The notes under the pieces are model-generated. The model ran no database searches. It was not told where the DNA came from and saw only the letters and a program-made list of their open reading frames with translations. A program made the position numbers and the translations under genes. DNA of 64,000 nucleotides from a virus, in IMG/VR virus record IMGVR_UViG_3300037339_000405, positions 1 through 64,000 of that record; one strand, 5' to 3'. Positions 44,443 through 63,813 of the stretch are shown piece after piece (positions within the stretch are counted from its first letter, which is position 1; each line of letters opens with the position of its first letter).

Positions 44443-44625
44443 CTAACGAGGTGGGTCAATGCTCCTGATAGGAAGCTTTTGCATCTGTAACCATCCCTTG
44501 GCCTGAGAAATGGCGGCATCCCTCTCCGGAGTATGCGTCTGCTGCTTCAGCTTGGCTATGTAACGCCGTATCTGCTCAGCAGGGGAATACACGGACACTT
44601 CCGGGTCAATCAAGCTGGCGATCAT
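44443..44625 (-). CDS. Small protein downstream of the MuF polyprotein (possible immunity or accessory)
   Basis: 60 aa, ATGA-coupled to MuF, with a GGAGG RBS. Confidence 0.55.
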   Translation of the reverse strand: MIASLIDPEVSVYSPAEQIRRYIAKLKQQTHTPERDAAISQAKGWLQMQKLPIRSIDPPR

Positions 44626-47600
44626 GCGATAGCCTCCAAGGGCTCGTGAATCAAGAAGGACGGGTTTATGGGAGGCATCTGCAGGCTCTTCAACACATCA
44701 ATTCGTGCCTGCACTGCCTTCACATCGATCAACCCTTCCACCATAGCCACATCATGCAGGAAACCGGGTCCTGCCTTCTCCACCACATAATCAAGCAACC
44801 CGTACCGATGCATCACCTGATTCACGAAATGCGTATGAGCAACAGCTGCCACATTCTCATGCACCCTTCCAGCTTGCACAAACGGGCGTATCGCAGAATA
44901 AAATTCTGCCGCAGCTTTCTGGTACACATCCCGATAGAGAAGGTTAAATTCACGCATCGCATCGATATTACCCATGAATTCTTTCACCCTCCCGGCATAC
45001 GTCGTGCCTTCAGAAGTCAGCGCGAGCATCTTGTCAATGCCCCAATTGGAGGCCAGCAGCATGTCCATGTCACTCAAGCTCCTCCCCATCGGGTGATTGT
45101 GGTACACCGTGGTACCTGACAGGCGCGCGGCCTCCTCCATCGTGAAATCCACGTAAGATTTGGTGCCCCCCTTAGTCAGCACCTCTTCGCCAGACCGATT
45201 GAACGCATAGAGGTATTCGCGTTCCGCGCTATCGGGCTGGTTGAGCACGTACTTGGAAGCTGTCTCATGAGCTTGCTGTACCGCGCTACGCCCGGTAAGA
45301 GGAGGCGCGGAAGTAATCTGCTCTATGCCTAGATCCGTGTGCACCGGCTGCTTGATGCGATCTGGAAATGCGGCTTGAAAACTGGGAGTGTCTTCAATGT
45401 TTGGAACCTGCCCGAGCGGTACCAGCTGCCCCCTGCAAAACGGATGAAATGGGGGGATATGCCAATTGCGGGCCACCACTTCTTCTTCGGTCATGTTGCG
45501 CAGCTTCTCTACGTCACTGGCTCGCTGACTAGGCCACGACTGCAACGTGCGAAGCTCCTGCGGATCGTCCACCGAGAGCACTACGTCCAACGTGTTGCGC
45601 GCTGAGACCACCGTGAAGGTGCGTCCATGCATCGCACGGCACACCGGACAAATCTTGTTATCCAGCTGCTCGTTTATTGCGTAGCGTTCCACCCCGAGAA
45701 TCTCTGCCTCGGACGTGAACCCATACGCGGCCACGCGCGTAGTGTGCAGGGCGCTCACCATCTGCATGTAACCGCGCCCACCATCACGGAAGCTTACGAA
45801 AGGTTGGATCAAGCTCTTGGTAAGCTCTTTGCTTACACGCCGGAGATGCAGGGGGTAGCGCGGCTGCCCTTCTTCTTGCCATTCCGCGCGCCAAATCACC
45901 GTCTTTCTATCCAGTGTGCGCACGGTCTCTACCACATCCCCAGTCCACGCACGCCATTCCCCAAGAGAAGATACCTTGTACCCACGCGTGCCTTTCTTGG
46001 GAGACACTTGCAAAACCTTTATCTCTTGGCGCCCTATATTCTTGAGAGCTTCAGCATCCGTCATGAAGAACAACGGATCTAAAGCGCCCCCCGCATTCTC
46101 GCGCCCTGCGAGGAACCGTTGAACAAAACGCATGCGCGTTTCCGTCTGCTCTACTTCGGTAGCAGGCCGTGAATAGAAACCTTCCCCCTCGCTCTGCCAG
46201 CTACCACCCAGTTTCCCCGCAACAATCTTGGGATCAGTAGAGAACGGGGTGTCTTTGGGCCAGCGCTTGTCAAGTGGGCCGATAAACATCACTGTACGAT
46301 TACGTGTCGATGCATCTAATTCCAATGGGATGCCGCGTTTTGAAACAGCGCCTCCCCAGATCCTAGTGATGAAATCCATGTAAGGCTGTTTGGCCTCTTC
46401 GCCCAAAGTGGCTTTGCCGATCAAGTCTTCTAGGCTCACTTTCTCGTTGAGAACATCGTGCATCAACAGCATCGCATTCTCGATTGCAACAGCCGTGCCC
46501 TTGTCTTCAGTGAAGCTGATAGTGTCCGAAGTCCCCCCACCTAGCCCGCGTCCAAGACCCTGACCTAGCTCCTCGCGCGTCTTTAGCCCGTGCTCCATGA
46601 CAGCAGAGACTGCCGTAGTAACGTGGTACAACTCATCGGGCAGGTTTTCTAGCTTCTCAGCCCCCGACAGGTTTGCCTGCAGAAAAAACCCCTGCTTCGC
46701 TGCGCTCTCCGGAGTTATGGTACCCATGGCAAGCGCTCTCATCATCTGCGCATCCCACGCACGCTCCTTCACGCGCTTCTTGTCAAAGAGTTCATGCACA
46801 GCCTCTGCGCTACCTAACCTTTCCACTATCTGATCGTAGTTCAAGCCCGCGACACCAGCATCTTCCATCATACTAGCGTCAAACCGCTCTCGTTTACCTT
46901 CCGGCGGCTCATTGCTGCGCGCCCACTGACCCCCCTCCGAAGTACCTGCAGGACTACGCGGCTGGTCGGGATCGTATTTTGTAGTGGCTCTACCCCTTGA
47001 AAACACCACATCGGAAGCCCGCCATACAAAGCGCTGCCCGATCCTTTTACTCGGTGCGGCTGATTTCAATGCACGCTGCTCCTGAGAAACTATCTCAAGC
47101 ATCACCATTTTGCGCTTGATGATCTCGTCCTCAGTAACCCGCATGCTCACGGGTACATCCTCCTGCACGGACAACACCCTGAACTTTGTCCCACGTGCAA
47201 GGATGAACTCATTCTCTGTGCCAGCGCCCGTGCCCAACCCTTTGTAACCTGCGGGCACAATAATACGGGCAACCACTTCTCCCGGAGTAAATGCGAAGTC
47301 CGCTGCCTTGCTAGAAGAAAGACTAGTGGAGGTGAAGCCGTTGTCTACAAACTCATCTCCCGCAGCAACTGCCTTCGCAAGCGGACCCCCCATGCCACGG
47401 TACACGGCAAGAGACTCTTTAAGAGGGGGTGCGCCTTCTATCGCCTTGTCTAAGGCCGCAACGTGCTCTTTGGTATAGCTCAAAGTTTCCTCTGACCCTA
47501 ATCCACTTCTCAAATACTCGTTAATCACTCTGTAACCAATGCCAGTGTAGTTGCCCAGAGCAATACCTTGTGCTGCTGGCAAGTTGGCTGTGTAGTCTCC

Positions 47601-48770
47601 ATAGTTGTCGGAAAGAAACTCTCGGGCTTTCTCCCTCTGGTCCCCGGGATCAGGCCCCACCTGCTCCAGAACATCCATTACACCTGTGTCAGTCCAGCGC
47701 CCTGCTTCATCACGCGGTTGGTCGGGGTCGTATTTTGTGATGCTAGGATTTTTTGGGTCAAACGCTCCGGTGTTACCTAGTGCAGACTTGATCTGCTCGG
47801 GCTTGAATACTCCCCAAGTCCAAGATTTACCCTCTTTCACCTTGATCCCATCGTAACCAGCCTTCTGTGCCGCTTCAACAAATCCCGGAGAGGCGATGAT
47901 TTGATAAGCCTTGAACTTCTGCGGCACCCCGTCCACTTCCTCATCTCCGTACTTGCCGACAGTGAACTCCAACCCAGTCGCCTTTCTGGCTTCCGCATAC
48001 GTCATCTTGTCGTTCATGTTGAACTTCAAGGTGATCGGCTTCTTCACGGAGAGCCACACCGGATAGACCGTCGGGTACTGTCCTTCATTCCACGACTTTG
48101 CCCCCGAATACTGGTCAGCGAGAACGGAAGTCACTCCGAACCACGCCACTGGATCTGTTCTGAACTCCTCTATCCCCGTCTCTCCAGTACCGTGTAAAAC
48201 CACCAACGGGGCTCCTTTGGGATCACGAACCTTGCTTTCCCCAAACCACTCGCGGAACTCGGGAGTGCCGGTGACAGTCCAGCGCCCCTGCTCGTCTCTC
48301 GGCTGATCTGGATTGAATTTGGTGATCCGCAACTGAAATGGATCAACCTCGGTGGGACCGAAATTGGTGGTGTCGTCACTGGCTTCCACGTCTGCAATCA
48401 ATTGCAGCATATCGTCCCGCAGCAGTTCCTCAGCATCCTGAAGGATCTGCCTGACGAGCAGCAGGCCCGCCTTGTTGACGACATCGTTGAGCTTGCCTGA
48501 CCCGGCCGCTGTGCTGCTCGCGCGCTCGGTCACGCGCGTGGCACCCACAAGCAGGGCCGCGCGTGTGTAGTACTCGATGGACTTGAGATTCTCGTCTACA
48601 ACTGTCTGCAGGCTGATTGAATTGGCGATCTGCGTTGCCAGCGCGTAGTCGCCCTTCTGCAGGGCAGACTTGACCTTACGTCCGATCTCGTTGGAAACCG
48701 TGAACCAGCTGCGGGTCAGCTTGTTGGCAAGCCCCTGCTCAACCGACAGGTAGGCTTCAATTGACGCCAT
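44622..48770 (-). CDS. MuF (minor head) polyprotein carrying two clear and one probable ADP-ribosyltransferase domains and a C-terminal JAB/MPN domain
   Basis: MuF motifs 'D.KICPVC..MHG' and 'PPFHPFCR'; ART-PolyVal-like 'F.EWFG.SKV.D..G.PLVV.HGT...GYDGI...F.P.QIKS..GN.G.FD'; VIP2-like ART 'VYRG..FTSTS..ENEFIL'; 'LYHVT' ART-like domain; JAB 'E...HNHP...SLSDMD'. Confidence 0.85.
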   Translation of the reverse strand: MASIEAYLSVEQGLANKLTRSWFTVSNEIGRKVKSALQKGDYALATQIANSISLQTVVDENLKSIEYYTRAALLVGATRVTERASSTAAGSGKLNDVVNKAGLLLVRQILQDAEELLRDDMLQLIADVEASDDTTNFGPTEVDPFQLRITKFNPDQPRDEQGRWTVTGTPEFREWFGESKVRDPKGAPLVVLHGTGETGIEEFRTDPVAWFGVTSVLADQYSGAKSWNEGQYPTVYPVWLSVKKPITLKFNMNDKMTYAEARKATGLEFTVGKYGDEEVDGVPQKFKAYQIIASPGFVEAAQKAGYDGIKVKEGKSWTWGVFKPEQIKSALGNTGAFDPKNPSITKYDPDQPRDEAGRWTDTGVMDVLEQVGPDPGDQREKAREFLSDNYGDYTANLPAAQGIALGNYTGIGYRVINEYLRSGLGSEETLSYTKEHVAALDKAIEGAPPLKESLAVYRGMGGPLAKAVAAGDEFVDNGFTSTSLSSSKAADFAFTPGEVVARIIVPAGYKGLGTGAGTENEFILARGTKFRVLSVQEDVPVSMRVTEDEIIKRKMVMLEIVSQEQRALKSAAPSKRIGQRFVWRASDVVFSRGRATTKYDPDQPRSPAGTSEGGQWARSNEPPEGKRERFDASMMEDAGVAGLNYDQIVERLGSAEAVHELFDKKRVKERAWDAQMMRALAMGTITPESAAKQGFFLQANLSGAEKLENLPDELYHVTTAVSAVMEHGLKTREELGQGLGRGLGGGTSDTISFTEDKGTAVAIENAMLLMHDVLNEKVSLEDLIGKATLGEEAKQPYMDFITRIWGGAVSKRGIPLELDASTRNRTVMFIGPLDKRWPKDTPFSTDPKIVAGKLGGSWQSEGEGFYSRPATEVEQTETRMRFVQRFLAGRENAGGALDPLFFMTDAEALKNIGRQEIKVLQVSPKKGTRGYKVSSLGEWRAWTGDVVETVRTLDRKTVIWRAEWQEEGQPRYPLHLRRVSKELTKSLIQPFVSFRDGGRGYMQMVSALHTTRVAAYGFTSEAEILGVERYAINEQLDNKICPVCRAMHGRTFTVVSARNTLDVVLSVDDPQELRTLQSWPSQRASDVEKLRNMTEEEVVARNWHIPPFHPFCRGQLVPLGQVPNIEDTPSFQAAFPDRIKQPVHTDLGIEQITSAPPLTGRSAVQQAHETASKYVLNQPDSAEREYLYAFNRSGEEVLTKGGTKSYVDFTMEEAARLSGTTVYHNHPMGRSLSDMDMLLASNWGIDKMLALTSEGTTYAGRVKEFMGNIDAMREFNLLYRDVYQKAAAEFYSAIRPFVQAGRVHENVAAVAHTHFVNQVMHRYGLLDYVVEKAGPGFLHDVAMVEGLIDVKAVQARIDVLKSLQMPPINPSFLIHEPLEAIA

Positions 48771-48774
48771 GGAG

Positions 48775-50946
48775 CTATTGCATCATCGTGTCGCCGCAAC
48801 ATGCCGCGATCTCGGCCAGTCCAGCGGGATCTCTACCAATAGCCGGGAACGTCTTCGCCGCCAGCAGCTGATTCAATAGCTCGCGCTCGTGTGGCGCGCA
48901 CAGATCCACCTTGTGAAGAATGGAGGCTTTCTCGATGGAGGAGTACTCGCGCGAAGGCTCATCCAGTTCCATCACCTCGGCCCACTGATTGGCGAGCACC
49001 AACAGATCCGTAGCAGTGTAGCCGGCCCGCTTCACCCCCGCTACCGGAGAGCCCACACCCGGCTGCACCGCAACTCCAACCCCGGCGGGCTTGGGTGGGG
49101 CAATCTTGCCATCAACAGCCGCTTGCGCAAATGGCACCAACTGCGGCGGAGCGTTCAAAGCCGCAGCCTGCGGATCGTACTCAAGGGTCAGGTTGGCAAC
49201 CTGATTAAGGTCCTTCATAAAGCTCTCAGCGCTGGCCTTGTCCTTGCCCATCTCAAGCCCTTTCAGTTGGGCATCGATGTTGCGCAGAGTGAGAGGCTTG
49301 CTGACCATCTTGAATTTGAAAGCCCCTAGCGCCCGGGAAATCGTGCGGTTAATGATCTCGTCAAACTCCTCCCGCTCAGGCTGAAACACCTGAGCCTCAG
49401 TCACCATGTAGCTCGTCATCGCCGTGGCAAACGAGTAGTCCTGCGCCTCTCCTAGAAACAAGGGGTGCAGTCTGAAGCCACGCCTGACACGGTTCTCGGC
49501 ATTCTTGTCGTACTCCTGAAACATCGCATCGTTCTGGCGTGAATCCCCAAAGCGCTCCACCTTCACATCCACCTTGCCAGCCGCATCAAGAGAGCCACTA
49601 CTACTCTGAGCCTCTACTACCGCCGCGCGCTGCTTACTCTTGGCGCCACCTGACAAGTAGTGCAACAGCTGCTCGCGCATGGTCTCCACCACTGACCCGC
49701 CTTGAATGAAAATAATCGCTGGCGGGATGCCCCCCGCGTCAAAAAAATCTAGGTTGAACAATTCACTCTTGCGGGAACCAACCACACTGGGCATCTGATT
49801 GATCCATCGCGGCATGCCGTAGTGAGTGCGGTAATCCAGATCCACTACAAAATGAATGACCTCGCTCGCCATGTTATCCACGGGTACCGTTTCACCCGTT
49901 ACAGCCCAGTCACCCTCTTTACGCTTTAGCACGCGCGAAGCACCAAACTCCTTGTAGAAAATCTGTTGGCTGCCGATGATCTGCACATAGCGGCGCTCCC
50001 GCTTGAGCATGCTGACCGTGCTCTCTTTACCAGAGCGTTCAATTTTCACCTCCACTTCCACAGGCTGATCAAGCTTGACCAGCCGCAGTGAAGGTGATTC
50101 CAGACTGCGGCACAGCACCACGTCATTGGCCGAGTTACGAATCACTTCCAGATAGCCGTTGCCGGTCATCTCCAGATCAAAGCGCAATGCGCGCCTGATA
50201 GTAGTCATGCTCATCCCGGGGTATGGCTCACCGTAGAAGTCCTTGAGCATCTGCTCTTCAGGATCGACAAACGGCGGGCGCACGTCTGGGGGAGGCTCTG
50301 CGCCGGGGGCGCCCGGCAAGCTTTCCGTTGTGGCCCCTATACCTTCTGGCCCGGGGTTCTGCCCCGCAGGGTCCTGCCCCGCAGGGTCCTGTGGAGGTTT
50401 CTGACCGTTCCCAGCGGGCGGGAAGGCTTTGGTGGCGGGCAGCCCCGGGATCTGATCCTGACCGTCTACAGGCGGCTGCTTGAGGCTCTCAGGAGTCTTG
50501 GAGCCCGGCGGCAACTTGATCGGTTTGCCTTCCGAGTCCTGCGGGCCATTAGCCAATCTATCCTGTACTTCCTGCCACTTTCGCAGCTTCTTTTCCCTGT
50601 CTGCCTTCTCTTGGTCAACCGGCTCGACTGTGAAGCCCGTGCCATCAATGTTCACCTCCATGGCCTGCACACACTGGAGCAGTGTGTTGTTCGCGTAGCA
50701 CAGCGCAATCAACGTCTCCGGATTGAACGGAGGCTGTATCGCCATCTTGTTAGACTGCGCGCTGGTATACAAGGATGAAAACTGATCCTCGTATGTCAGA
50801 GGTTGATTGGCAATCAACTCGTTCTCGGCGGAACGTTTGAATGCCTTGGAAAAGTGAACCGCAATATCGGCCGAACTACTACCGGATTTGCGGACGGGTA
50901 TTGCTTTGTGTGCTTTAGCCATAGTGGCCCCCTGAATAGCCAGCAC
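48775..50946 (-). CDS. Portal protein, with a Pro/Gly-rich insertion
   Basis: 'IQPPFNP..L......N..L..CV.AM..NIDG.G', 'D.E.TGNGYLE.IR', 'YG.PRW' and 'N..FF..G.IP'. Confidence 0.9.
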   Translation of the reverse strand: MLAIQGATMAKAHKAIPVRKSGSSSADIAVHFSKAFKRSAENELIANQPLTYEDQFSSLYTSAQSNKMAIQPPFNPETLIALCYANNTLLQCVQAMEVNIDGTGFTVEPVDQEKADREKKLRKWQEVQDRLANGPQDSEGKPIKLPPGSKTPESLKQPPVDGQDQIPGLPATKAFPPAGNGQKPPQDPAGQDPAGQNPGPEGIGATTESLPGAPGAEPPPDVRPPFVDPEEQMLKDFYGEPYPGMSMTTIRRALRFDLEMTGNGYLEVIRNSANDVVLCRSLESPSLRLVKLDQPVEVEVKIERSGKESTVSMLKRERRYVQIIGSQQIFYKEFGASRVLKRKEGDWAVTGETVPVDNMASEVIHFVVDLDYRTHYGMPRWINQMPSVVGSRKSELFNLDFFDAGGIPPAIIFIQGGSVVETMREQLLHYLSGGAKSKQRAAVVEAQSSSGSLDAAGKVDVKVERFGDSRQNDAMFQEYDKNAENRVRRGFRLHPLFLGEAQDYSFATAMTSYMVTEAQVFQPEREEFDEIINRTISRALGAFKFKMVSKPLTLRNIDAQLKGLEMGKDKASAESFMKDLNQVANLTLEYDPQAAALNAPPQLVPFAQAAVDGKIAPPKPAGVGVAVQPGVGSPVAGVKRAGYTATDLLVLANQWAEVMELDEPSREYSSIEKASILHKVDLCAPHERELLNQLLAAKTFPAIGRDPAGLAEIAACCGDTMMQ

Positions 50947-50975: not shown

Positions 50976-53324
50976 TCAATCCAGTGTGAGCTTCTTCAGT
51001 TCCGCAAGATTCGACCCCACTTGGCAATCCACCTTGAAGGTCAGCTGAGGATGCCAGCCCACTTCATGGAACGGCAGATTCTCCATGATCTCCTTGGACA
51101 AGCGCGCGTAGTACTCAAAATTGTTCTCGGGGAAATAGAACAACAGCTGATCGTGCACCATGCCCCACACCGGCATCACGGGAAACAGTCTGCGCTGATC
51201 CACGATTGCCGTGGCCCACAATGCCATGTCACTAAGGGTTCCCTGCACCGGGCTATTGATCGCCTGCCGCCCCGCCTTGCTGTTCATGTACCTGTCAGCG
51301 GAATGAATCAGCGGCAAATGCCGCACGCGCCCCAACGGGCTATAAACCTTGCTGTGCATGCGAGCGAAAGCCTTCTGCTCCTCATGCCACGGCCCCAGCC
51401 TACTATATAGGCTGAAGAAAGCATCTCGGGCTACAGTAGCCTCCTCCAACGTCATCGCCACGCCATACACGTACCACGCGTAATCCTTGAAACCCTCGGC
51501 GCTCATTCCATACAGAAGCCCAAAATTACCCGCCTTAGCCTTCTGCCGGACCAACTCGAACAGCGCGGGATTGGTGCGCGCCAGTTCCAGAAACTGCTCA
51601 AAATTCTTGTACCCTGCAAGCTTGGCGCCGGTCATCGCATGCAAATCGATGCCCTTGCGATACGCAGACAGCATGGTGGGCTCCTCGGCCAGACACGCCG
51701 CGATGCGCAGTTCCCCTTGACTGTAATCATTGGACCCGATCAGCCAGCCTTTCGGCGCCACCAAGCAACGCCGGATCTTCCCGGCCCACTTGGTGTGCTT
51801 GGGCACCGTCTGCCCGGGTGGGTCCTTGACACTGATGCGCCCGGTATTGGTCCCTCCCGCCGATTCATGATCATCCCCAGCGAACAGGAAATGCGTCGGA
51901 TGAAACCGGCCATCGGAACGCAGATGTTCCAAGAAGCCAGTGACATAGGTGTTCAGTGTCTTGGTGGCCTCACCGTACTCATCCAGCAGCTTGATAAACG
52001 GCCCTGCCTCCTCGTGCTCGCTGAACATCTCCAGATGTTTCATCGCCGTGGAGGGCTTGTTGGTCTGCGCTGTCTTCATCTTGGGGCGCAGGTTGAACCC
52101 CGTGGGACTGAACATCACATCGTGCAGGAAGCTTGGCTTGGTGAGATTGATCTCCCCGTCTTTATCGGTGTGCCGCAGAATCAAGCGCGGGCTCACCATC
52201 GACTTCACCTCTTCAGTCTTCTTGGCGATAAACGCGCGCACGTCGGCCTCAAGCTCACGATAGGCTTCGCGGTCCACACACCAGCCTACCCGTTCAACCT
52301 TCTCGTAAGCGCGTGCAGCCGGATGCAGAATCGTGGTGTAGAAACGAGCCAGCCTAGGCTCCTGCAGCAACTCCTGCCTGAGTGGCTCTATGACGCGGTA
52401 ACAAGCATCTGTGTCGCCGCCGGCATACATCAGAAACCGGTCAGGATCTGCAGCTAGCGCAAGATCCATGCGTGACTTGTCCACCATACGGTTGAAGCCA
52501 TCATCGTAGCCGCCAAGATCCGTGTATATCTTAGCGTGCACGTTGAGACTGTTGCTGCGATTCTCATCCACCAGTGAACCTACGAGCATGGTATCCATGC
52601 GAAACGTGGTGCACTCGGTGATCAGCCACAGCTTGGCAATCCAGTTCAAATCAAACTTGAGATTGGCGCCATACAACGCCACGCGCGGGTCAGTGAGTAT
52701 GAAATTGAAGTCGGCGCGCAGCCCCCACCCGATGCGCCGGCACGCCTTGCGATTAGCGAACTTGACCGCATCAGCCGTGCCTGCCTTGACAGTAACCTGC
52801 GCACTGACGATGTACCCAAGTGGATTGTAGGGGTCAACTCCCCGTGTTTCCAGATCCAGAGTGGTACGCACCGGTTTGCCCGTGCGTGCAAACTCGGCCT
52901 TGATGAAATCAATTGCATCGGTGAAATCTTCCACCCAGCGGTACTGACCCATAGGTGGTATGACAGTGCCCGTGTGCACCAGCCTGATCGCCGTGCGCAC
53001 GTCCATCATGGTGTCCACCGCCAACGCGTGGTCCACATCGATGATCTGTGCCGCATAGGTCAACAGGCATTGCGCCCCACACGGCAGCGCAATCGGCTGC
53101 GTGCGCAGGCTGCCTATCGTGCGGTTACGCGGCTTGATTACCCCTGCGTCAGAGATCAACTGACGCGCGTTAGCGCCCATGGCAAGCACCACGTCTCCCG
53201 TACCAAACTCAGGGAGGTGATCGCCTACGGACTCGAATCTATGTGGAGTGCTGGTCCCACTCAACGCTGGGGCCACCACCTTCTTCAGGTGGTGCGGCGT
53301 ATCCGGGGTCCACACTATGAGCAT
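50976..53324 (-). CDS. polA: DNA polymerase family A with 3'-5' exonuclease and an N-terminal UDG-like remnant (likely start MLIVWTP at 53324)
   Basis: Exonuclease motifs 'LDLET', 'NLKFD' and 'YAGGD'; polymerase motifs 'TGRIS', 'DYSQGELR', 'R..AKAGNFGLLYG', 'N.PVQG' and 'VHDQL'. Confidence 0.95.
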   Translation of the reverse strand: MLIVWTPDTPHHLKKVVAPALSGTSTPHRFESVGDHLPEFGTGDVVLAMGANARQLISDAGVIKPRNRTIGSLRTQPIALPCGAQCLLTYAAQIIDVDHALAVDTMMDVRTAIRLVHTGTVIPPMGQYRWVEDFTDAIDFIKAEFARTGKPVRTTLDLETRGVDPYNPLGYIVSAQVTVKAGTADAVKFANRKACRRIGWGLRADFNFILTDPRVALYGANLKFDLNWIAKLWLITECTTFRMDTMLVGSLVDENRSNSLNVHAKIYTDLGGYDDGFNRMVDKSRMDLALAADPDRFLMYAGGDTDACYRVIEPLRQELLQEPRLARFYTTILHPAARAYEKVERVGWCVDREAYRELEADVRAFIAKKTEEVKSMVSPRLILRHTDKDGEINLTKPSFLHDVMFSPTGFNLRPKMKTAQTNKPSTAMKHLEMFSEHEEAGPFIKLLDEYGEATKTLNTYVTGFLEHLRSDGRFHPTHFLFAGDDHESAGGTNTGRISVKDPPGQTVPKHTKWAGKIRRCLVAPKGWLIGSNDYSQGELRIAACLAEEPTMLSAYRKGIDLHAMTGAKLAGYKNFEQFLELARTNPALFELVRQKAKAGNFGLLYGMSAEGFKDYAWYVYGVAMTLEEATVARDAFFSLYSRLGPWHEEQKAFARMHSKVYSPLGRVRHLPLIHSADRYMNSKAGRQAINSPVQGTLSDMALWATAIVDQRRLFPVMPVWGMVHDQLLFYFPENNFEYYARLSKEIMENLPFHEVGWHPQLTFKVDCQVGSNLAELKKLTLD

Positions 53325-53799
53325 CGTCAATCCTCTTCCACTTCTTCTTGATGTACTCGTAATGTGCCAGCAGACACTGCGGCACTTTCCAGATGATGTT
53401 GCGGTATATGTCGGCAAGCGAGCGATTCGTTATGTCCCGATGCCCAGACAGGAACATGCCCCCTTCAGGAAACACGGCGTCACTGTCCCGGATTTTAGCG
53501 CCGTCCAACACCAACACGGACTGACGATCAGTAGCCTTACTGTGCACGACCAACAGAAACAAATCCACGCCCACATGCACCAGCATCCATAGTTGGGACC
53601 CAAGAATACTGGAAGCCTTTACCATCAACGTAAACTCCAAGTCTACCTCTCCCGGAAGGCTCTCCATCTGCACAGTAAGCGCCCCTGAGATCGGCAAGCT
53701 CACAGCACCTACATTCAGCTGATTGCGATCCACCGTCAACGGCATCTGCAAAACGTCAGACATCTTCTTAATGTGCTCTAGGATCACAGGAGTGCTCAT
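53239..53799 (-). CDS. Hypothetical protein
   Basis: 186-aa ORF, ATGA-coupled to the upstream gene. Confidence 0.6.
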   Translation of the reverse strand: MSTPVILEHIKKMSDVLQMPLTVDRNQLNVGAVSLPISGALTVQMESLPGEVDLEFTLMVKASSILGSQLWMLVHVGVDLFLLVVHSKATDRQSVLVLDGAKIRDSDAVFPEGGMFLSGHRDITNRSLADIYRNIIWKVPQCLLAHYEYIKKKWKRIDDAHSVDPGYAAPPEEGGGPSVEWDQHST

Positions 53800-54846: not shown

Positions 54847-54874
54847 ATGGTACTACATCTGGCTCAAATGTCAA
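54847..54874 (-). promoter_or_regulatory. Sigma70-type promoter TTGACA-N16-TACCAT
   Basis: Read directly from the minus strand. Confidence 0.65.
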
Positions 54875-55527
54875 CCCCAGATGGATAGCTTACTAGTCTC
54901 CTCCGGAGTGCACTTGTCTAGCGCCAGCCGCCGAGCGGCAGCACTAGGCTGATTGAGGGTGAAATCTTTCAAATAGGAATACGGCCCCATGCGCACCGAA
55001 TCCAACTCACGGTTGATCTCCTTAACACTGGCGCGGCTTCCCAGTACGTCTTTGGCCCCATAGTTCTTGACTAGGAAATCAACCTGAGCCCGAGACTCCA
55101 CAGCGCGTGAACAATAGTTCTCCCGCACCCAGCCAATCGGGTCCACCTCCTTGTTCATGATGAACACCAGCGCCGCCAACACCATGCCTGTGCGGCCATG
55201 CCCGCCTAAACATCCCACGTGCACCCGCTTGCCCTGACGCAATAGCTCGGCCAGCCATTCAATCATCTTGCGGAACTCTGTCAGGTTCTTTGGCGCCTGC
55301 ATGTCAGAGATTCCAAAGAACACAAAGACCGGCCCACTCTGCGCATGATTCCACGGATACATGCTCGGATGGCTCGCGGTACCCCAGTCCAGCGACACAT
55401 ACACGTCCAACTCGTCTTTCGGGTCTGCCGCGATACCACCATGGAACTCACCCGCCCCCAGCTTGACTACCGGATGCGAATGCGCACACCTGCTCTTGTC
55501 CTTTCCGAATCCCAATCCGAACTTCAT
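54871..55527 (-). CDS. Cys-based (CX5R) protein-tyrosine / dual-specificity phosphatase 1
   Basis: 'HVGCLGGHGRTG' P-loop, 'ISDMQAP' acid loop and 'AVES.AQ' Q-loop. Confidence 0.9.
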   Translation of the reverse strand: MKFGLGFGKDKSRCAHSHPVVKLGAGEFHGGIAADPKDELDVYVSLDWGTASHPSMYPWNHAQSGPVFVFFGISDMQAPKNLTEFRKMIEWLAELLRQGKRVHVGCLGGHGRTGMVLAALVFIMNKEVDPIGWVRENYCSRAVESRAQVDFLVKNYGAKDVLGSRASVKEINRELDSVRMGPYSYLKDFTLNQPSAAARRLALDKCTPEETSKLSIWG

Positions 55528-56634: not shown

Positions 56635-57171
56635 CTACACCAGATCAGCTAGGATTGTCAATCCACGATCACGCAGCCATAGCTTGAGACGCAGCTTGCG
56701 AAGGCCCCACTTCATAAGCTCCATCGGAAAATCCCTCACGTAGATTTCCTGCTCAGGGGTCTCCACCGCCGCCGGCCGAAACGACTGCCTAACGTATTCA
56801 ACCGGAGTGGGCTCACCACAAGCCCGCGCCAGAAGCGCTAGGAAGGTCCCAGTGCGCCCCAGACCCCCAAGGCACCCCACGAACACCTGCTGCCCATCAA
56901 TCGCCCTGCGCAGGGCCTGAAGGATCGTACAAGCCATGTGGTCAGGATCGGACGGAATCCCCATATCCCTGATAGGCACTTCAGCATCTGACGCCTTGGG
57001 CTCCTCCGGAGCAAGCTTGATCATCCAAACCCCACTCAACGGGGTAGGACCACTCTTGTAAGGCCCTCCCCAAAGCCGCAGCTTGGCGCTGCCAAACATT
57101 ACATCCATCGGGAAGGCTACACCCCCCGCTAGGACCCTAGCCCTATTGGGAGGGGATTGCACCTTTGCCAT
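56635..57171 (-). CDS. Cys-based (CX5R) phosphatase 2
   Basis: 'FVGCLGGLGRTG', 'PIRDMGIP' and 'AVETPEQ'. Confidence 0.9.
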   Translation of the reverse strand: MAKVQSPPNRARVLAGGVAFPMDVMFGSAKLRLWGGPYKSGPTPLSGVWMIKLAPEEPKASDAEVPIRDMGIPSDPDHMACTILQALRRAIDGQQVFVGCLGGLGRTGTFLALLARACGEPTPVEYVRQSFRPAAVETPEQEIYVRDFPMELMKWGLRKLRLKLWLRDRGLTILADLV

Positions 57172-58305: not shown

Positions 58306-60495
58306 TCAACTGCACGAGAGCACCGATGTGGCCAATTGCCTACGCGACACGCCCACCGTAACCACCGACGCATACTTTCCTTTGGGCAACCCTCTCGCGG
58401 GGGAAAACAACGTCAGCTGCTCGGCAGCACTCTGCTTCAGTTCCAGTACTTTAGTAAGGGCGCGCGGATCAAATTTCACACCGCCCTCTTGGTAGTCAAG
58501 CCACACCAATCCAGTCTGACTCACAAGAGATCCAATATCCTCCACCACGTCCATCACGCGATACCCCATGGCACTCAGTTTCGCAACCAGCGGAGGCGTG
58601 AGCAGATCGTGCGGCAGAATCCAGAAATTCTTCACCGGGTGACTTTTGGCGAACTCAATCAGAAACTCAATCTTCTTTATGAACACGTGCACTGAATTCG
58701 GCAGAATCTTAGGCTCCAGTGTCTGCAACAGATCGTAGTCACCACCACCGTTAACTTGCAAGCACAACAGAGTCATATCAATCACCATGGTGCGATTGCC
58801 AGCAGCCTTCAGCACCTCCAGAAAATTCGTGCCCCGGAACCCGTCGATCTCCATAGCATATGAAGCAAAAAGCACCTTGTCACCTGCTGCAGCCACTTCA
58901 GCTGCATTGGTGCACGTCTCGAATACGCCATACCGGGTGAACAGCATCGAATAAAACTTGTCCACCTCACTACTCATGCCTGCCAACACCGGAACCTCAA
59001 TATCCACCCACACGCGCCCAGTGTCACCGCACAGTGTCACCTTGCTACCCTTAGTGATCGCGCTTATGTCACCGCATCCCACCACGCACGGCAGATTCAT
59101 ATCACGCGCAACCACAGCAGCGTGCGCTGTTGAACCCCCAGTGCGGGTGACGATCCCGCGCGCTGCGCGCATACCCTTGATATCGTCGGGGTTGGTTTCG
59201 TCAGTGACCAGAATCACGCCTTCAGCACTCCTCTGCTCAGCTTCTTTGGAAGAGAAAACCGCGAACCCCGTTGCTACGCCACCGGAAGCAGCAATACCCT
59301 TCAAGGTCTCCTTGCCAGTGAACGATGCCGGGATAACAGGCTTGGCAGCCTCAAACAACTGTGCAAGTGTCACGTGTTTGACTGCCATATCCAGATCGAT
59401 CAGATTGGACGCCGCCATCTCAGTAGCGATACGCAGCGCAGCCCTCGCAGTACGCTTGGCAGCACGGGTCTGCAACACATAGGTGAGCCCTTTCTCTACA
59501 GTAAGCTCCACATCCTGTGCATCACCGTTGAAAGCCTCCAATTTCTTGACCGTGGTGAACACTTCTTCCGCCACGTACTGATCCCACACGGCTAGCTGAT
59601 CGATTGGCATGGGAGTCTTGATGCCCGCCACCACATCCTCTCCCTGTGCCATCGGAAGAAACTCCCCCACCACTTTGTTTTCGCCGGTAGAAGGATCACG
59701 CGAGAATGCGACCACGGTACAGCTGTTCACGTCCAAATTGCCGAAAACCATCTGCTGGATCACCACCGCCGTGCCAAGATCATGCGGGATGCCATTCATA
59801 TCACGGTAGACTTTTGCGCGCTCGTTACCCCAACTGGCGAACACCGCGCATATGGACTGAATCAACTGGCCCTTAGCCTTCGGAAATTTCTGGCCGGTCT
59901 CCTTCTCGAAAAGCTTGAAGCGCTCGCGCAACCCAAGGTTCTGAAACTTGTGGCGCTCGATGCCGAATACCACACTGCCGAACATCTCAACCAGCTTGCC
60001 ACGCACTTCGTCAGCGCAACTCTGCCCCAAACTGGCTCTCCAATGACTAGCGTTGGTTTCATCGATGCCCACGTTGAGAATTGTGTCCATCATGCCGGGC
60101 ATAGAAAACTTGGCGCCGCTACGCACGCTCACCAGCGGCATCACGTCACCCACCCCCTGCATGGTATTGATTATTTGCGGCAGCAGTTCGTTGAGAAGTG
60201 AGACTACCGCATCAGGGTCCTGCATATAGAGCTTGCAGGCCGTCACCGGAATGATTATGGCAGGAGGAACTCGAAACCCAGCCCGGTGCATACGCACCAG
60301 ACCGTAACCCTTACCCCCAAGTAAATCCAGATCCTCGGGAGCGTTATCCAACGTGTAGAACGGGAGCCCTTGCATCTCGCACTCCTTTGCCAGACCCATG
60401 CCTGCAATGATACCAGATTGGTACTGCTTGTCAAGCTCCTCCGCGTAAGCCTGCTGCCATGATTTAAGTGACGCCGGCAGCTTCTTCTTGACCAC
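58306..60495 (-). CDS. PPDK-derived dikinase: ATP-grasp plus phospho-His swivel domains, with an unrecognised C-terminal domain instead of the pyruvate-binding barrel
   Basis: 'LGGKG', 'VSVRSGA..SMPGMMDTILN.G', 'QQMVFGN', 'AQGEDVVAG..TP', 'LQTR..KRT' and catalytic 'GGSTAHAAVVAR'; 729 aa, and no barrel motifs in the last ~225 aa. Confidence 0.9.
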   Translation of the reverse strand: MVKKKLPASLKSWQQAYAEELDKQYQSGIIAGMGLAKECEMQGLPFYTLDNAPEDLDLLGGKGYGLVRMHRAGFRVPPAIIIPVTACKLYMQDPDAVVSLLNELLPQIINTMQGVGDVMPLVSVRSGAKFSMPGMMDTILNVGIDETNASHWRASLGQSCADEVRGKLVEMFGSVVFGIERHKFQNLGLRERFKLFEKETGQKFPKAKGQLIQSICAVFASWGNERAKVYRDMNGIPHDLGTAVVIQQMVFGNLDVNSCTVVAFSRDPSTGENKVVGEFLPMAQGEDVVAGIKTPMPIDQLAVWDQYVAEEVFTTVKKLEAFNGDAQDVELTVEKGLTYVLQTRAAKRTARAALRIATEMAASNLIDLDMAVKHVTLAQLFEAAKPVIPASFTGKETLKGIAASGGVATGFAVFSSKEAEQRSAEGVILVTDETNPDDIKGMRAARGIVTRTGGSTAHAAVVARDMNLPCVVGCGDISAITKGSKVTLCGDTGRVWVDIEVPVLAGMSSEVDKFYSMLFTRYGVFETCTNAAEVAAAGDKVLFASYAMEIDGFRGTNFLEVLKAAGNRTMVIDMTLLCLQVNGGGDYDLLQTLEPKILPNSVHVFIKKIEFLIEFAKSHPVKNFWILPHDLLTPPLVAKLSAMGYRVMDVVEDIGSLVSQTGLVWLDYQEGGVKFDPRALTKVLELKQSAAEQLTLFSPARGLPKGKYASVVTVGVSRRQLATSVLSCS

Positions 60496-61605: not shown

Positions 61606-61619
61606 GATCCCTCCACTAG

Positions 61620-61958: not shown

Positions 61959-61968
61959 CTCAGCCCCC

Positions 61969-62388
61969 TTAATCCATCCGGCTCATTGAATAGGCATTGA
62001 GCCCGGCAGCATTCAGCACCATCGCAAAAGCACCGGCATACGCTTCTTTGCGAGCGAGAGACTGATTGAACTCACTCACCCAGAGCATGTACCCGCCCTC
62101 ATAGGAATCGGCCTTGCCCATCCCGCGAGACTTCAGGTAACTGACAAACGGGCCACGCGCGGGGCGAATCTTGATCCACGCAAACCCGCACACGCCATCC
62201 ATAATGGGAGCGTATTTGCGCATGATCGGGCTTGCATCATCCAGCGGGTTGGCCCGCTCCACCACGATCATCGGAATCGGCACCACCTCTGCCGCCGCTT
62301 CCAAACCCGCCGCTCGCGCACGCGCGAACAACTCGCCCATCTCCTTGCGTTCCGCAGCTTTCATTTTTCGCCCTCCTTGGCTAAACAC
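61969..62388 (-). CDS. Hypothetical phage protein (probable start MKAAERK)
   Basis: 'GVCGFAWI.I.PARG.F......G......GG......F.QS..RKEAYA.AFA.VL...G..A...SR.D' pattern familiar from phage early genes. Confidence 0.75.
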   Translation of the reverse strand: MFSQGGRKMKAAERKEMGELFARARAAGLEAAAEVVPIPMIVVERANPLDDASPIMRKYAPIMDGVCGFAWIKIRPARGPFVSYLKSRGMGKADSYEGGYMLWVSEFNQSLARKEAYAGAFAMVLNAAGLNAYSMSRMD

Positions 62389-62397
62389 TACAGTCTT

Positions 62398-62425
62398 ATG
62401 ATACCACGTACAGCAGGATTGTCAA
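62398..62425 (-). promoter_or_regulatory. Sigma70-type promoter TTGACA-N16-TATCAT driving the early/accessory operon
   Basis: Minus strand reads TTGACA atcctgctgtacgtgg TATCAT. Confidence 0.75.
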
Positions 62426-62430
62426 GCATT

Positions 62431-62452
62431 AAAAAAGCGGGCCTAGCCCGCC
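62431..62452 (-). terminator. Intrinsic terminator
   Basis: Minus strand reads GCGGGC-TAG-GCCCGC-TTTTTT. Confidence 0.8.
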
Positions 62453-62473
62453 TTTACAGATACCCGGAGACCC

Positions 62474-62677
62474 CTATTTGGAGGGGGCCAACGGGTTTGC
62501 CTTCAGCCAGTCTTCATAGGCTTTGCGCTCATCAAGATCACGCAGAGCCTCCAAAGGAACCCCTTGGCGAGCAAGCGAGCCATAGAACTCATCTGGGCTA
62601 AACTTGCGTACTTCACCCGGGTCATTCTCATACACGTCCTGCCTGTGCGGCGGGATAAACACCTTGTCGGCTGCCAT
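62474..62677 (-). CDS. Small acidic protein downstream of the zeta toxin (antitoxin candidate)
   Basis: 67 aa, AGGAG RBS, co-terminated with the zeta gene. Confidence 0.6.
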   Translation of the reverse strand: MAADKVFIPPHRQDVYENDPGEVRKFSPDEFYGSLARQGVPLEALRDLDERKAYEDWLKANPLAPSK

Positions 62678-62685
62678 GCTGTCTC

Positions 62686-63813
62686 CTAACCCAATGGGGC
62701 CTTTCTCACTGAAATCCTCGGCAAGCGGGTCGTCACCGGCTTGGCTCTGACCCCTTTACCAGTAGCGCTGTCGTACTCAGCAACTTTAATCGCCGGCTTG
62801 TCTCTTGCCACTTCGTTGTTGAACACAGACCATTTCTCAAAGTGAGTAGACAGCTGCTCAAAATTCTTCTCATTGTTGAAGCCACTTAGAATTGCTGAAG
62901 GAGGAACCAGCCTCCCACGCTGACCCGGTCCCTTGCCTCTCCACCTTTCCACCGCACGCTGCGCCGCTAGCTGCGGGGGCAAATGGACGAAAGCCCCCTG
63001 TACACTGTAACCAGCCTTGGAAAAACTGGTTATCCTATCTAAAGCTGGGTCATAGCTCTTCATCGTAGCGTCAAGAACCACGTTATACCCGGCAGCTTTT
63101 GCTCTTCGTGCCGCCATATCAAAAAGATGCCCGCTTTCCTCATGGTAAATGGCAGCCTTGGATTCCCAACCCTTGACTTTGTCACGCTCGGCCAGCCTCT
63201 CCTTGAAGTGATCGGCATCAATCACAAGAGTCTTAGCCGGATCATACAAATGCAGAGACACTGGCCGAGAATCACTGCGTGCACCGCTTTTTCCACTGCC
63301 TCCACGCCCCCCCAATACCAAAGCCGTTGGTGCAACACCCACCGGCGGTATAGCGTTAGCGGCACCCTTGAAGAACTCAACAAGGATCTCATCATGCACC
63401 TTCGTGCGTTCCGCACTAAAAGAATCTTTCGTGGCCCCGGCATGAACCATGTGAGTACTTTTGCCGGCAGCTATATCTGCGTCCACTGCGGCCATTTCAC
63501 GCAGAAACTCCGCATGATCCGCCTTGCTTAACGTAGCAAAGAGGATCTCGTCTTCTATTTCAGCCCTCCCAGACTGGGTTTCTACTCGCGGGTCGGCGGA
63601 CTCATTGAATAGAGAAGACGCGGAACCTCCGGGGGTGACCCTCTCTCCCGGCCGCGCATTGATGGCTTCTCGTACCTTTACCGGGCGCTTGCGCACCATC
63701 GCGCCACCAACACTGGCGCCTAACGATTTAATCCACTTACCATATTCATCCCTAGGCTGGCTGGGGTCGAATTCCTTACGGACGTTCTGGAAAATGGAAG
63801 GGATGTTCAACAT
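62686..63813 (-). CDS. Zeta-toxin-family P-loop kinase with an N-terminal DPxQPRD tag
   Basis: 'LGGRGGSGKS', 'VIDAD.FK', 'HEES', 'NVVLDAT' and 'A..RA..R....GR.VP'. Confidence 0.85.
   Translation of the reverse strand: MLNIPSIFQNVRKEFDPSQPRDEYGKWIKSLGASVGGAMVRKRPVKVREAINARPGERVTPGGSASSLFNESADPRVETQSGRAEIEDEILFATLSKADHAEFLREMAAVDADIAAGKSTHMVHAGATKDSFSAERTKVHDEILVEFFKGAANAIPPVGVAPTALVLGGRGGSGKSGARSDSRPVSLHLYDPAKTLVIDADHFKERLAERDKVKGWESKAAIYHEESGHLFDMAARRAKAAGYNVVLDATMKSYDPALDRITSFSKAGYSVQGAFVHLPPQLAAQRAVERWRGKGPGQRGRLVPPSAILSGFNNEKNFEQLSTHFEKWSVFNNEVARDKPAIKVAEYDSATGKGVRAKPVTTRLPRISVRKAPLG

Follow-up and report, generated by a model that had tools for sequence, protein, structure and literature searches.

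A short peptide, here called the header, opens each of eight modules encoded by a 95,622-bp (~96-kb) phage genome, the first 64 kb of which form the window analysed here. The header is a widespread label of proteins whose genes adjoin phage head genes, and apparently one not described before. Judging from sequence, we give a probability of about 0.5 to the reading that it is a handling signal for head-carried cargo, a widespread peptide of which each copy opens one cargo module. The consensus is [VLI]-x-K-[YF]-[DSN]-P-[DNS]-Q-P-R-D-[ED]-x-G-[RK]-[WF]-T, with a Gly/Ser tether after it; QPR-xPxGx-xEGGQ[WF] is the long form, and GHPF-x-GNQ[WY]T defines a sister type. The header-bearing modules are two ADP-ribosyltransferases (ARTs) and a domain of no named family within a MuF protein, a Zeta kinase, three modules across two ART genes, and a 131-aa protein. 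Of the eight headers, three stand inside a protein; the second header of a 448-aa protein would make a fourth.

Outside T4, little is understood of how tailed phages select the proteins that ride in the head and accompany the DNA into the cell. With a header recognisable from sequence, thousands of unannotated genes next to head modules would become candidates for injected effectors, and the occurrence of one and the same enzyme module either free or fused to MuF, portal or scaffold would be accounted for; cargo loading could also be tested simply, with harmless reporters in laboratory phages.

Header Copies in the Genome

All four tags reported by the first-pass annotation were found at the positions it gives, on the minus strand, three in the MuF protein and one in the Zeta kinase. 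In a six-frame translation of the complete genome, the pattern [YF][DNS]P.[QH][PD][RE] has 7 matches, whereas 200 shuffles averaged 0.1 and never exceeded 2; 3 of the 7 lie beyond the window, in two ART genes just outside it. The copies are mostly unlike at third-codon positions and their longest common exact DNA string is 13 nt, so that the conserved entity is the peptide and not a DNA repeat; a DNA repeat or recombination site as the main cause was rejected on these grounds. The residues ahead of all eight headers are [ITVL]-x-[KR], or K-E in the Zeta protein.

The MuF-Anchored Protein and the Head Module

All features placed within the window lie on the minus strand. The MuF-anchored polyvalent protein (44622..48770, 1382 aa) consists of an N-terminal stretch of 148 aa, three cassettes of header plus module, a MuF/gp7 core and a JAB-like end. 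Header 1, a short form, ITK-FNPDQPRDEQGRWT (48276..48326, aa 149-165), precedes an ART-PolyVal ADP-ribosyltransferase domain (47760..48224, aa 183-337; PF18760, E 5.1e-19, 69.9 bits with a cut-off of 31.2), and header 2, also short, ITK-YDPDQPRDEAGRWT (47691..47741, aa 344-360), precedes a VIP2/exoenzyme-type ADP-ribosyltransferase domain (47157..47624, aa 383-538; PF03496, E 2.7e-18). Header 3, TTK-YDPDQPRSPAGTSEGGQW (46923..46985, aa 596-616), is a long form with a 5-residue insert and is followed by a domain of about 300 aa that belongs to no named family (45981..46904). Since this region (aa 617-981) has no family match in Pfam, PHROGs or NCBIfam, gave no usable fold from the single sequence (pLDDT 34) and yielded no relative in an Atlas search, it is only a putative enzyme; 21 of its homologues are free-standing proteins of 309-528 aa, some with other header variants and many without a header. 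The earlier claim that each tag in this protein precedes a distinct enzyme domain is thus verified for the two ARTs, but not for the third module.

The probable MuF/SPP1 gp7-like core (45417..45827, aa 982-1118) scores below the cut-offs of TIGR01641 (E 1e-6, 29.1 bits against 39.65) and PF04233 (E 0.013, 16.7 bits against 29.6); among PHROGs it matches phrog_30193 (9e-25) and the minor head protein families phrog_9907 and phrog_115, the minor-head matches being at 3e-5 and 3e-4. In Stenotrophomonas phage Summit, the gene that follows the portal encodes a homologue of it; the N-terminal 148 aa align only weakly (E 0.043) with the same Summit protein when compared for a possible MuF split by the insert. 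The C-terminal domain (44625..45233) matched no library and Pfam was silent; an H-N-H-P-x6-S-x2-D motif read at aa 1224 suggests that it is JAB/RadC-like. Neither HExxH nor HExxxH occurs in the protein, and no peptidase family matches it.

The MuF gene directly follows that of the portal protein (48775..50946; PF04860, E 1.1e-8, below cut-off), an order also seen in Summit, and the next gene encodes an XkdF-like head protease (43791..44399; PF14550, Peptidase_S78_2, E 1.2e-26, 93.6 bits with a cut-off of 24). The true start of the protease is probably Met41 of a 242-aa open reading frame, giving 202 aa, because its homologues are about 200 aa long. After the gene for a 131-aa protein come a candidate scaffold (42097..43347, 416 aa), so named by its position and composition, with an Ala/Lys/Glu-rich middle and no family match, and the major capsid protein (41125..42063, 312 aa; N-terminus MTNQEIVRK-AD), some homologues of which are named HK97-family capsid protein or carry PF05065.

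Free-Standing Header Genes

The Zeta-toxin-like kinase (62686..63813, 375 aa; PF06414, E 3.3e-19) is free-standing, has a GGAG ribosome site ahead of its ATG, and contains a Zeta_toxin domain (aa 160-323) with a P-loop, the Walker A motif GGSGKS at aa 171. Its header, VRKE-FDPSQPRDEYGKW (63733..63783, aa 11-27), sits behind a 14-residue leader that runs to Glu14, with Lys at position 13. The 131-aa protein encoded after the protease (43399..43794) has the leader MSYVKILR, a header of the second type (GHPFRGNQ), GEPPGHPFRGNQHT, and a Gly run. Past the window edge (63814..64000) lie two more header-bearing genes, in genome numbering that continues that of the window. A 282-aa ART (genome 66240-67088, L001:2240-3088) starts with the leader MMYAHVLR and the long-form header YSPDQPRAPVGTTEGGQF, and a 448-aa protein (genome 67085-68431, L001:3085-4431) consists of a leader and the header FNPNHDERGRF, a ParB-like region (ParBc_2, 1.5e-3), a second header, YDPEQPRVPAGNSEGGQF, at about aa 200, and an ART; PF03496 matches the two at 4.6e-18 and 1.4e-20. 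An 8-residue leader, M-x-[YF]-[AV]-x-[VI]-L-[KR], is common to three of the free-standing genes here, whatever their header type and each behind a good ribosome site, and similar leaders are seen again in metagenomes.

The free-standing tagged genes are 14-20 kb upstream of the head module, past a DNA polymerase gene and among host-takeover genes, so that co-expression with the head genes is not evident. The tagged set of this genome comprises three or four ARTs, Zeta and one module of no named family; untagged host-takeover genes include two phosphatases, a PEP-utilising enzyme and an ADP-ribosylglycohydrolase. This split is a testable prediction of particle content. The glycohydrolase, 20 kb off, is the sole candidate antidote.

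Conservation of the Header Across Phages

A profile of the tag found 1,803 protein clusters (counted as representatives) at E<=1e-3, of which 357 reach <=1e-10; the strongest matches are proteins of 0.4-3.8 kaa with 2-13 tags each, about one domain apart. Among 590 header instances, R is present in 100%, G in 97%, W/F in 98% and Q in 90%, and conservation is absent upstream of -3; Gly makes up 37.5% of the 5 residues following W. Spacing between tags is mostly 100-400 aa. The first tag lies within 40 aa of the N-terminus in 76 of 146 tag proteins (52%), and the last within 40 aa of the C-terminus in just 2 (1.4%); since half of the proteins begin with a tag and almost none end with one, the tag is a header. 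AlphaFold2 modelling of 48 aligned tags gave a core of mean pLDDT 83 between low-confidence flanks, the core being a compact loop, predicted with moderate confidence, with an R16-W22 bridge.

A PDB profile search gave no convincing match for the header; the best phage entry, the gp113 baseplate hub of phage 7-7-1 (9RKU, E 0.15), was set aside because only the QPRD-x-x-GRF half is present, inside a hub loop. Self-cleavage at Asn/Asp-Pro, of the FlhB NPTH-like or GDPH-like kind, was rejected, since the position is taken by Ser in 32% of the 590, as it is in one of this phage's own headers. Literature searches with motif strings returned nothing relevant, and no paper describing the header was found.

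Cargo and Genomic Context

A census of cargo in 51 tag proteins gave ADPrib_exo_Tox (9), MuF (8), ART-PolyVal (7), PARP (4), Zeta (3) and Tpt1 (3), together with TopoIB, GNAT, ATLF and LPD1; ARTs, Zeta, Tpt1 and TopoIB are domains of polyvalent proteins. Genomic context was taken from IMG/VR loci. Among 150 neighbouring ORFs from 37 loci, the leading families are S78 protease, capsid, four portal families, MuF and terminases, and the header-bearing loci span 33-74% G+C. In a complete 31-kb phage, the same two ARTs as in the MuF protein here, ART-PolyVal and exoenzyme-type, form a free-standing pair, both with headers, right before MuF; elsewhere, a lambda-type portal is followed by a 5-header chain running from ART to Zeta, in which Pfam finds no MuF, and a header with a Tpt1-like module is fused to DUF2213. 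A cultured case is gp14 of Mycobacterium phage Predator, a very basic protein encoded between portal and MuF that starts MSFNPRQPRDRLGRW, with only two residues ahead of the header. The portability claimed for the tag is therefore borne out, as it is common to fused and free-standing effector genes and is found elsewhere almost always among head genes, a distribution that fits a label for head-carried cargo.

A tblastn search of cultured phages with a 25-aa tag was too insensitive, returning only the Predator group. The ART-PolyVal homologues of the cultured phages Tunturi_5, Caulobacter Jess A, Dickeya JA33 and Gordonia Gray have no header, and neither does the Summit MuF protein. A single conserved accessory "receptor" gene beside the tagged genes was not supported by all-against-all clustering of 1,122 neighbouring ORFs, in which no family occurs in more than 23 of 119 loci, the largest being the capsid/protease-capsid group. 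MuF as an obligatory partner was also set aside, since PF04233 was detected in just 14 of the 30 long contigs and in 3 of the 6 that are complete, figures limited by the sensitivity of the model.

Possible Roles of the Header

As a handling signal, the header would be read during head building and would give a module access to the procapsid or keep it there, be it free or joined to MuF, portal or scaffold. A cut at the N-terminal edge of the header ([IVL]-x-[KR] in this phage) would free the fused modules or the 8- to 14-residue leader, leaving every mature effector with the header as its new N-terminus, on a flexible tether, and ready to be ejected along with the DNA. Cleavage after the Lys is a hypothesis, and cutting would not always be needed, given the two residues ahead of the header in Predator gp14. 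The reader of the header would not be one particular protease family.

The first-pass annotation had combined a portable, module-opening header, which is supported, with cutting by the XkdF protease, which is not supported as a rule. We judge unlikely the model in which the XkdF-like head protease recognises and cleaves the header, cutting after the Lys, and as its one reader both recruits and releases the cargo, although the residues ahead of all eight headers here speak for it, as do a K or R at -1 in 61% of 587 headers (background 12%) and a -1 residue that is uniform within a phage at 30 of 54 loci, compared with 5.9 by shuffle. Such uniformity can stem from relatedness of the copies; a basic residue before the tag is common but not universal, other phages using A, G, D, E, N or F at -1 and about a quarter of headers having no basic residue at -1 to -3. 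Further [ILV]-x-K sites had been noted in the head proteins. Those of scaffold, capsid and MuF are not above chance (14 in the scaffold against 8.9 expected from its own composition, 5 in the capsid protein against 3.2), but the capsid N-terminal site stands out, as N3, K9, A10 and D11 are invariant across 35 homologues, giving an I/L-V/I-x-K-A-D motif nine residues in. Moreover, the conserved part of the header lies 16 residues downstream of the proposed cut, far beyond the needs of a protease subsite, and co-occurrence with this protease is not the rule: among 30 tag-bearing viral contigs, each of at least 30 kb, PF14550 is over its cut-off in 4 (7 at E<=1e-3), HK97-type S78 (PF04586) is found in 8 and DUF2213 in 3-4, ClpP and S49 are absent, and about 11-14, including one complete 54-kb phage, show none of these five families. 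Against the handling-signal reading, the header is conserved across phages with different portal, capsid and protease families, which is odd for a peptide docking on fast-evolving head proteins and points to a conserved partner or an intrinsic property. Such conservation, over 33-74% G+C, would suit a cellular partner better than a phage one, as would be the case if the header acted after injection, binding a conserved bacterial component or setting the lifetime of the effector. One header per enzyme module suits the need of each separated effector, no immunity genes adjoin the ART or Zeta modules of this phage, and a cut before [YF] would leave a Tyr or Phe N-terminus, a type that the bacterial N-end rule adaptor ClpS recognises. 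Against this, the N-degron context is poor when position 2 holds Asp, Ser or Asn, and headers also open non-effector head proteins (the DUF2213 scaffold/protease-type protein and the very basic Predator gp14), so that we regard action in the infected cell as similarly improbable.

Less probable still is a junction module kept for cassette swapping, like the motifs before polymorphic-toxin tips, with no dedicated reader. The same domain families do occur with different header types or none, free or fused to different carriers, and cargo sets vary between related phages, Summit MuF having none. However, at most 13 nt of common DNA and scrambled third codons leave little for homologous recombination to act on, the near-invariant R, G, W/F and Q show strong purifying selection on the peptide itself, and N-terminal headers on single-domain genes are not junctions. 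The compact loop and its bridge, together with a [DSN]-P-x-Q that we take to resemble a helix N-cap box, would agree with an inert cap or linker that folds into a small turn by itself and does no more than separate domains; yet a spacer is needless at the extreme N-terminus of single-domain proteins and would be expected neither to be confined to head-gene neighbourhoods nor to give the start/end asymmetry, and this is the least probable of the readings considered. A broader form of the handling-signal reading, in which the whole family (QPRD-GRW, QPR-PAG-GGQW, NPNHD-GRF and GHPF-GNQW) is a tailed-phage address label for proteins that a particle carries and injects, used across unrelated head types and hosts and read by a conserved partner, is put forward tentatively. 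If it were true, injected effectors could be listed from sequence alone and chosen proteins loaded into phage heads.

Comparison with Known Systems

In phage T4, the internal proteins (IPI-III and Alt) carry a capsid targeting sequence (CTS) that is removed by the prohead protease gp21 (PMC9026906, PMC9958956). The likeness would lie in a short N-terminal peptide by which otherwise unrelated proteins reach the inside of the head, in its link to proteolysis during maturation, and in cargo that is injected with the DNA and has an ART among its members. The CTS, however, is poorly conserved, upstream of the cut and discarded, whereas the conserved part of the header is downstream of the proposed cut, repeated inside polyproteins and nearly invariant across head types; in place of [LI]-x-E cut by a T4-type prohead protease, this phage has [ITVL]-x-[KR] and a PF14550 protease. 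In the giant phages phiKZ and SPN3US, many head-internal proteins are cut by a T4-like head protease at a short consensus, a 3-residue site ending in Glu, and then ejected (PMC10052503, PMC7411985); unlike in the present phage, no long conserved header follows these sites. Encapsulin cargo-loading peptides and DarA/Hdf of phage P1 are precedents for cargo held inside an HK97-fold shell through a short peptide or a small adaptor. The encapsulin peptides are C-terminal and co-vary with the shell. In P1, DarA/Hdf dock on the inner capsid surface (PMC12810830); these are folded adaptor proteins. Contact of the header with a shell would be hypothetical.

The MuF polymorphic toxins of temperate phages described by Jamet et al. 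2017 (PMC5576092) have an N-terminal MuF, one C-terminal toxin and then an immunity gene, and no junction motif is described there. Here too, a probable MuF head protein carries swappable toxin domains, but the order differs, three modules (aa 149-981) preceding the MuF core (982-1118) and the C-terminus being JAB-like, and the downstream gene encodes the protease and not an immunity protein. Phages and conjugative elements also encode polyvalent proteins (Iyer, Burroughs, Anand, de Souza and Aravind 2017, PMC5512222; NAD/ADPr survey 2022, PMC9503650), very large chains that combine several effectors, have domains of the ART-PolyVal, MuF, RadC/JAB, ParB and Zeta types, and are predicted to be packed in the head and injected. 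The same studies report that ARTs are often encoded beside head genes and propose zincin-like metallopeptidase domains as processing agents (PMC5512222, PMC9503650); text searches of both found no mention of the header. The 1382-aa protein belongs with them in joining ART-PolyVal, ADPrib_exo_Tox, an unnamed module, a MuF core and a JAB-like end in one chain, and in carrying a domain family defined on such proteins (PF18760); the zincin-like domain, common but not obligatory among them, is absent from it. The header itself goes beyond the polyvalent proteins, since it also marks free-standing genes.

Distribution and anatomy of the header

The four tags reported by the first-pass annotation, three in the 1382-aa MuF protein (44622-48770, minus strand) and one in the Zeta protein (62686-63813, minus strand), are all present where it placed them, and six-frame translation of the whole genome contains the pattern [YF][DNS]P.[QH][PD][RE] seven times (200 shuffles: mean 0.1, maximum 2). 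The viral contig is a single piece of 95,622 bp, of which the window covers the first 64 kb, and nearly all of its long ORFs lie on the minus strand. The three additional copies are found beyond the window in two translationally coupled minus-strand genes. One (genome 66240-67088) encodes a 282-aa ART with the N-terminus MMYAHVLR-YSPDQPRAPVGTTEGGQF; the other (genome 67085-68431) encodes a 448-aa protein made of the leader VTFAVILK, the header FNPNHDERGRF, a ParB-like region, a second header, LR-YDPEQPRVPAGNSEGGQF, and an ART. Alignment of the seven copies separates a QPR-DE-x-G[RK]W tail from a QPR-xPxGx-[ST]EGGQ[WF] tail with a five-residue insert, and also reveals an NPNHD-x-x-GRF variant. 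At identical residues the third-codon positions mostly differ between copies, and the longest DNA string that copies have in common is 13 nt; this conserved module-opening sequence is thus selected as a peptide. The minus-strand 131-aa gene that follows the protease gene begins with MSYVKILR-GEPPGHPFRGNQHT-DEGGGG, a second header type, whose GHPF-x-GNQ[WY]T sequence followed by Gly recurs at the equivalent position in giant QPRD-header proteins, one of which contains six GHPF-type headers and four QPRD tags. With this type counted too, the phage encodes five proteins with eight headed modules between them. Its three short free-standing genes have in common the 8-residue leader M-x-[YF]-[AV]-x-[VI]-L-[KR] before three different header forms, each gene having a good ribosome site or translational coupling.

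A profile built from the seven tags and run against 1.84 billion representative proteins matched 1,803 proteins at E ≤ 1e-3 and 357 at E ≤ 1e-10, a census biased toward similar forms, as both the profile and the DNA pattern used below derive from the tags of this phage. The best 150 matches are proteins of 426-3,849 aa with 2-13 matched stretches each. The consensus of 590 instances, 95 of them in the long form that carries the insert, is [VLI]-x-K-[YF]-[D43 S32 N19]-P-[DNS]-Q90-P84-R100-D82-[ED]-x-G97-[RK]-[WF]-[TAS], and conservation is absent upstream of position -3. The first tag lies within 40 residues of the protein start in 76 of 146 proteins and the last one within 40 residues of the end in only two, successive tags being mostly 100-400 aa apart. 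The five residues following the Trp are rich in Gly (37.5%) and Ser (15%), while the 17 residues preceding the tag have background composition. The tag is therefore a header, neither a trailer nor a plain linker. The leaders that precede N-terminal tags are 5-25 residues long, most commonly 7-11, and many follow the pattern M-[YF]-A-x-h-L-K. AlphaFold2 models of 48 aligned tags give a compact core loop (mean pLDDT 83) with low-scoring flanks, a faint hint that the header may be a small ordered motif.

Cargo and genomic setting

In the minus-strand head module, transcription order runs from a family-A DNA polymerase (50976-53417) through the portal (48775-50946), the MuF-type protein, the XkdF-like protease (PF14550, 1.2e-26), the 131-aa gene and a 416-aa scaffold-like gene to the 312-aa capsid protein. 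The order portal, MuF-like, serine protease, two genes, capsid is the same in Stenotrophomonas phage Summit (95.7 kb), and of all named relatives Summit's MuF-like protein comes closest to the MuF core (40% identity over aa 985-1177); no close relative of the phage was found among deposited phages. The protease ORF (43791-44519, 242 aa) is probably 40 codons too long: about 120 homologues have lengths near 200 aa and an entry with 99% identity has 202 aa, indicating a start at Met41 (44399).

The Pfam domains of 51 tag proteins correspond to the polyvalent-protein repertoire: ADPrib_exo_Tox (9), Phage_Mu_F (8), ART-PolyVal (7), PARP (4), Zeta_toxin (3) and Tpt1 (3), together with topoisomerase IB, GNAT, lethal-factor-type zincin, LPD1, PI3/4-kinase and ParB. 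A degenerate DNA pattern for the short form matched at least 119 IMG/VR stretches; the loci listed range from 33 to 74% G+C, and many of them have two to five tagged genes side by side. In IMG/VR loci of up to 15 kb, the commonest families among 150 untagged neighbouring ORFs (37 loci) are head genes without exception, namely S78 protease (7), Phage_capsid (6) and three other capsid families, MuF (4), four portal families (5, 3, 2, 2) and several terminase families, and conjugation genes do not figure within the 25 most frequent families. The header is thus restricted to head-gene neighbourhoods, within which the same cargo interchanges between a free form, fusions to MuF or scaffold, and a portal-adjacent form. 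In a complete 31-kb phage, the ART pair that the studied phage fuses into MuF is encoded by a gene of its own (header-ART-PolyVal-header-exoenzyme-ART), in which the leader MKNIEIIRK precedes FDPNQPRD; this gene and a further tagged one stand immediately ahead of MuF, S78 protease and capsid. A complete 48-kb phage shows the order terminase, tagged 152-aa gene, portal, MuF, tagged 233-aa gene, DUF2213, cement, capsid. Another complete phage, of 54 kb, has terminase and portal of lambda type; its portal is directly followed by a chain of 1443 aa with five headers (ART-PolyVal ... PARP/Tpt1-like ... Zeta), in which Pfam recognises no MuF domain. In a complete 66-kb phage, a DUF2213 head protein is fused to a header with a Tpt1-like module.

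Among cultured phages a single carrier came to light, gp14 of Mycobacterium phage Predator (L127:4995-5756; NC_011039 8264-9025), encoded between the portal gene on one side and a gene with a JAB-metalloprotease motif and then the MuF gene on the other. It starts with the header MSFNPRQPRDRLGRW, followed by about 235 low-complexity residues rich in Lys, Arg, Ala and Gly, and is very basic; although annotated as a head maturation protease, in composition it resembles a basic protein of the head interior more than a protease. The baseplate hub gp113 of Agrobacterium phage 7-7-1 (PDB 9RKU; L129:3903-5267) has SQPRDASGRFAYSGGPG at aa 82-98; this is only the second half of a header plus tether, lacking the [YF]-x-P start (E 0.15), and is probably coincidence.

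MuF modules and untagged neighbours

Each MuF tag had been described as preceding a distinct enzyme domain. Two modules are indeed ARTs (PF18760, PF03496), while for module 3 (aa 617-981) Pfam, PHROGs and NCBIfam gave no match. Free-standing homologues of module 3 number 21, some with other header variants and many without a header. The C-terminus of the MuF protein (44625-45233) contains an H-N-H-P-x6-S-x2-D motif resembling JAB/RadC metalloenzymes, with spacing one residue under the usual, which Pfam does not recognise. As a JAB gene also adjoins the tagged gene in Predator, a JAB enzyme could be another processing candidate.

Just upstream of both tagged ART genes, a 331-aa ADP-ribosylglycohydrolase without header is encoded (L001:4669-5664, i.e. 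genome 68669-69664, minus strand; PF03747, 2.1e-35). It may act as an antidote or timer for the four ART modules of this phage and, lacking a tag, is predicted to be left out of the particle. Directly downstream of the same ART genes lies the gene for a 292-aa protein with a DUF6011 zinc-ribbon-like motif (L001:1331-2209, genome 65331-66209; 2.9e-9). Headers are also absent from two small genes for dual-specificity phosphatases (54871-55527 and 56635-57171, minus strand; PF22785 and PF22784), whose families are known from polymorphic toxins and 'Swiss Army Knife' proteins, although both genes are located between Zeta, which is tagged, and the head module. A 729-aa protein (58306-60495, minus strand) combines PPDK_N and PEP-utilising mobile domains (4.8e-36, 2.8e-24), a family seen once near tagged genes of other phages.

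Possible processing and role of the header

It had been suggested that the XkdF-like protease cuts after the Lys preceding each tag. Searching the entire records of 30 tag-bearing contigs of at least 30 kb for head-protease families did not bear out a tie to this enzyme: XkdF-type PF14550 exceeds the cut-off in four (seven at E ≤ 1e-3), while HK97-type PF04586 has a match in a different set of eight, DUF2213 in three to four, and ClpP and S49 in none. The six contigs rated at least 90% complete have S78 in two, DUF2213 in two, XkdF in one and none in one, whose head genes likewise gave no protease with PHROGs. MuF is recognised by Pfam in 14 of the 30, a negative Pfam result not amounting to absence of protease or MuF, as the MuF core of the studied phage itself falls under the cut-off. 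These censuses indicate that the header is independent of the XkdF protease and of any single portal, capsid or MuF family, and a model relying on XkdF only appears doubtful.

The preference for a basic residue in front of the header is strong but not universal: Lys or Arg stands at -1 in 61% of instances (background 12%), at -1 or -2 in 73% (23%) and at -1 to -3 in 78% (32%), and some whole phages have A, G, N, F, D or E at -1. In 30 of 54 loci (5.9 by shuffle) all tags have one and the same -1 residue, but tag copies in one phage are related, so this is no proof of co-evolution with a protease. In this phage [ITVL]-x-[KR], or K-E in Zeta, precedes all eight headers. As for the additional cleavage sites proposed in the head proteins, [ILV]-x-K is not enriched in scaffold (14 versus 8.9 expected) or capsid (5 versus 3.2); the capsid N-terminus nevertheless stands out, with an invariant h-h-x-K-A-D nine residues from the start, because N3, K9, A10 and D11 are invariant in 35 homologues (65-82% identity). 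Cutting at the pre-header and capsid Lys/Arg sites may fairly be proposed as no more than a local hypothesis for this phage.

We infer, with a probability of roughly 0.5, that the header is a handling signal shared by head-carried cargo and that the modules become separate. A fused module needs no loading signal and a free one no junction, yet both have the same header; in the simplest reading each module would finally stand alone, its N-terminus bearing the header on a flexible tether. This would require a cut at the upstream edge of the header, or removal of the short leader, and recognition of the header by something. The near-invariance of the header across phages with sequence-unrelated head proteins is the chief difficulty for this reading and argues for a conserved reader, candidates being a fold-level feature of portal or capsid, a protease fold, or a host protein. 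The same near-invariance keeps alive the idea that the header acts after injection, which seems unlikely. Should the cut fall before [YF], effectors would start with Tyr or Phe, the class of N-termini read by the bacterial N-end rule. A pure recombination junction appears quite improbable, and an inert cap very improbable.

Comparison with known systems

By the definition of Iyer et al. 2017 (PMC5512222), the MuF protein counts as polyvalent. It does not belong to the MuF polymorphic toxins as Jamet et al. 2017 (PMC5576092) define them, since its architecture is reversed and no immunity gene follows. Text search of these two papers, of PMC9503650 and of the wider openly accessible literature returned no description of the header motif. 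The header is alike in idea to the T4 capsid targeting sequence, but differs in the features that define that family, namely the type of protease, the L/I-x-E site and conservation that resides in a leader which is discarded. Precedents of a functional kind only are the processing of ejection proteins in phiKZ-like phages, the cargo peptides of encapsulins and the Dar proteins of P1, which dock on the inside of the capsid (PMC12810830).
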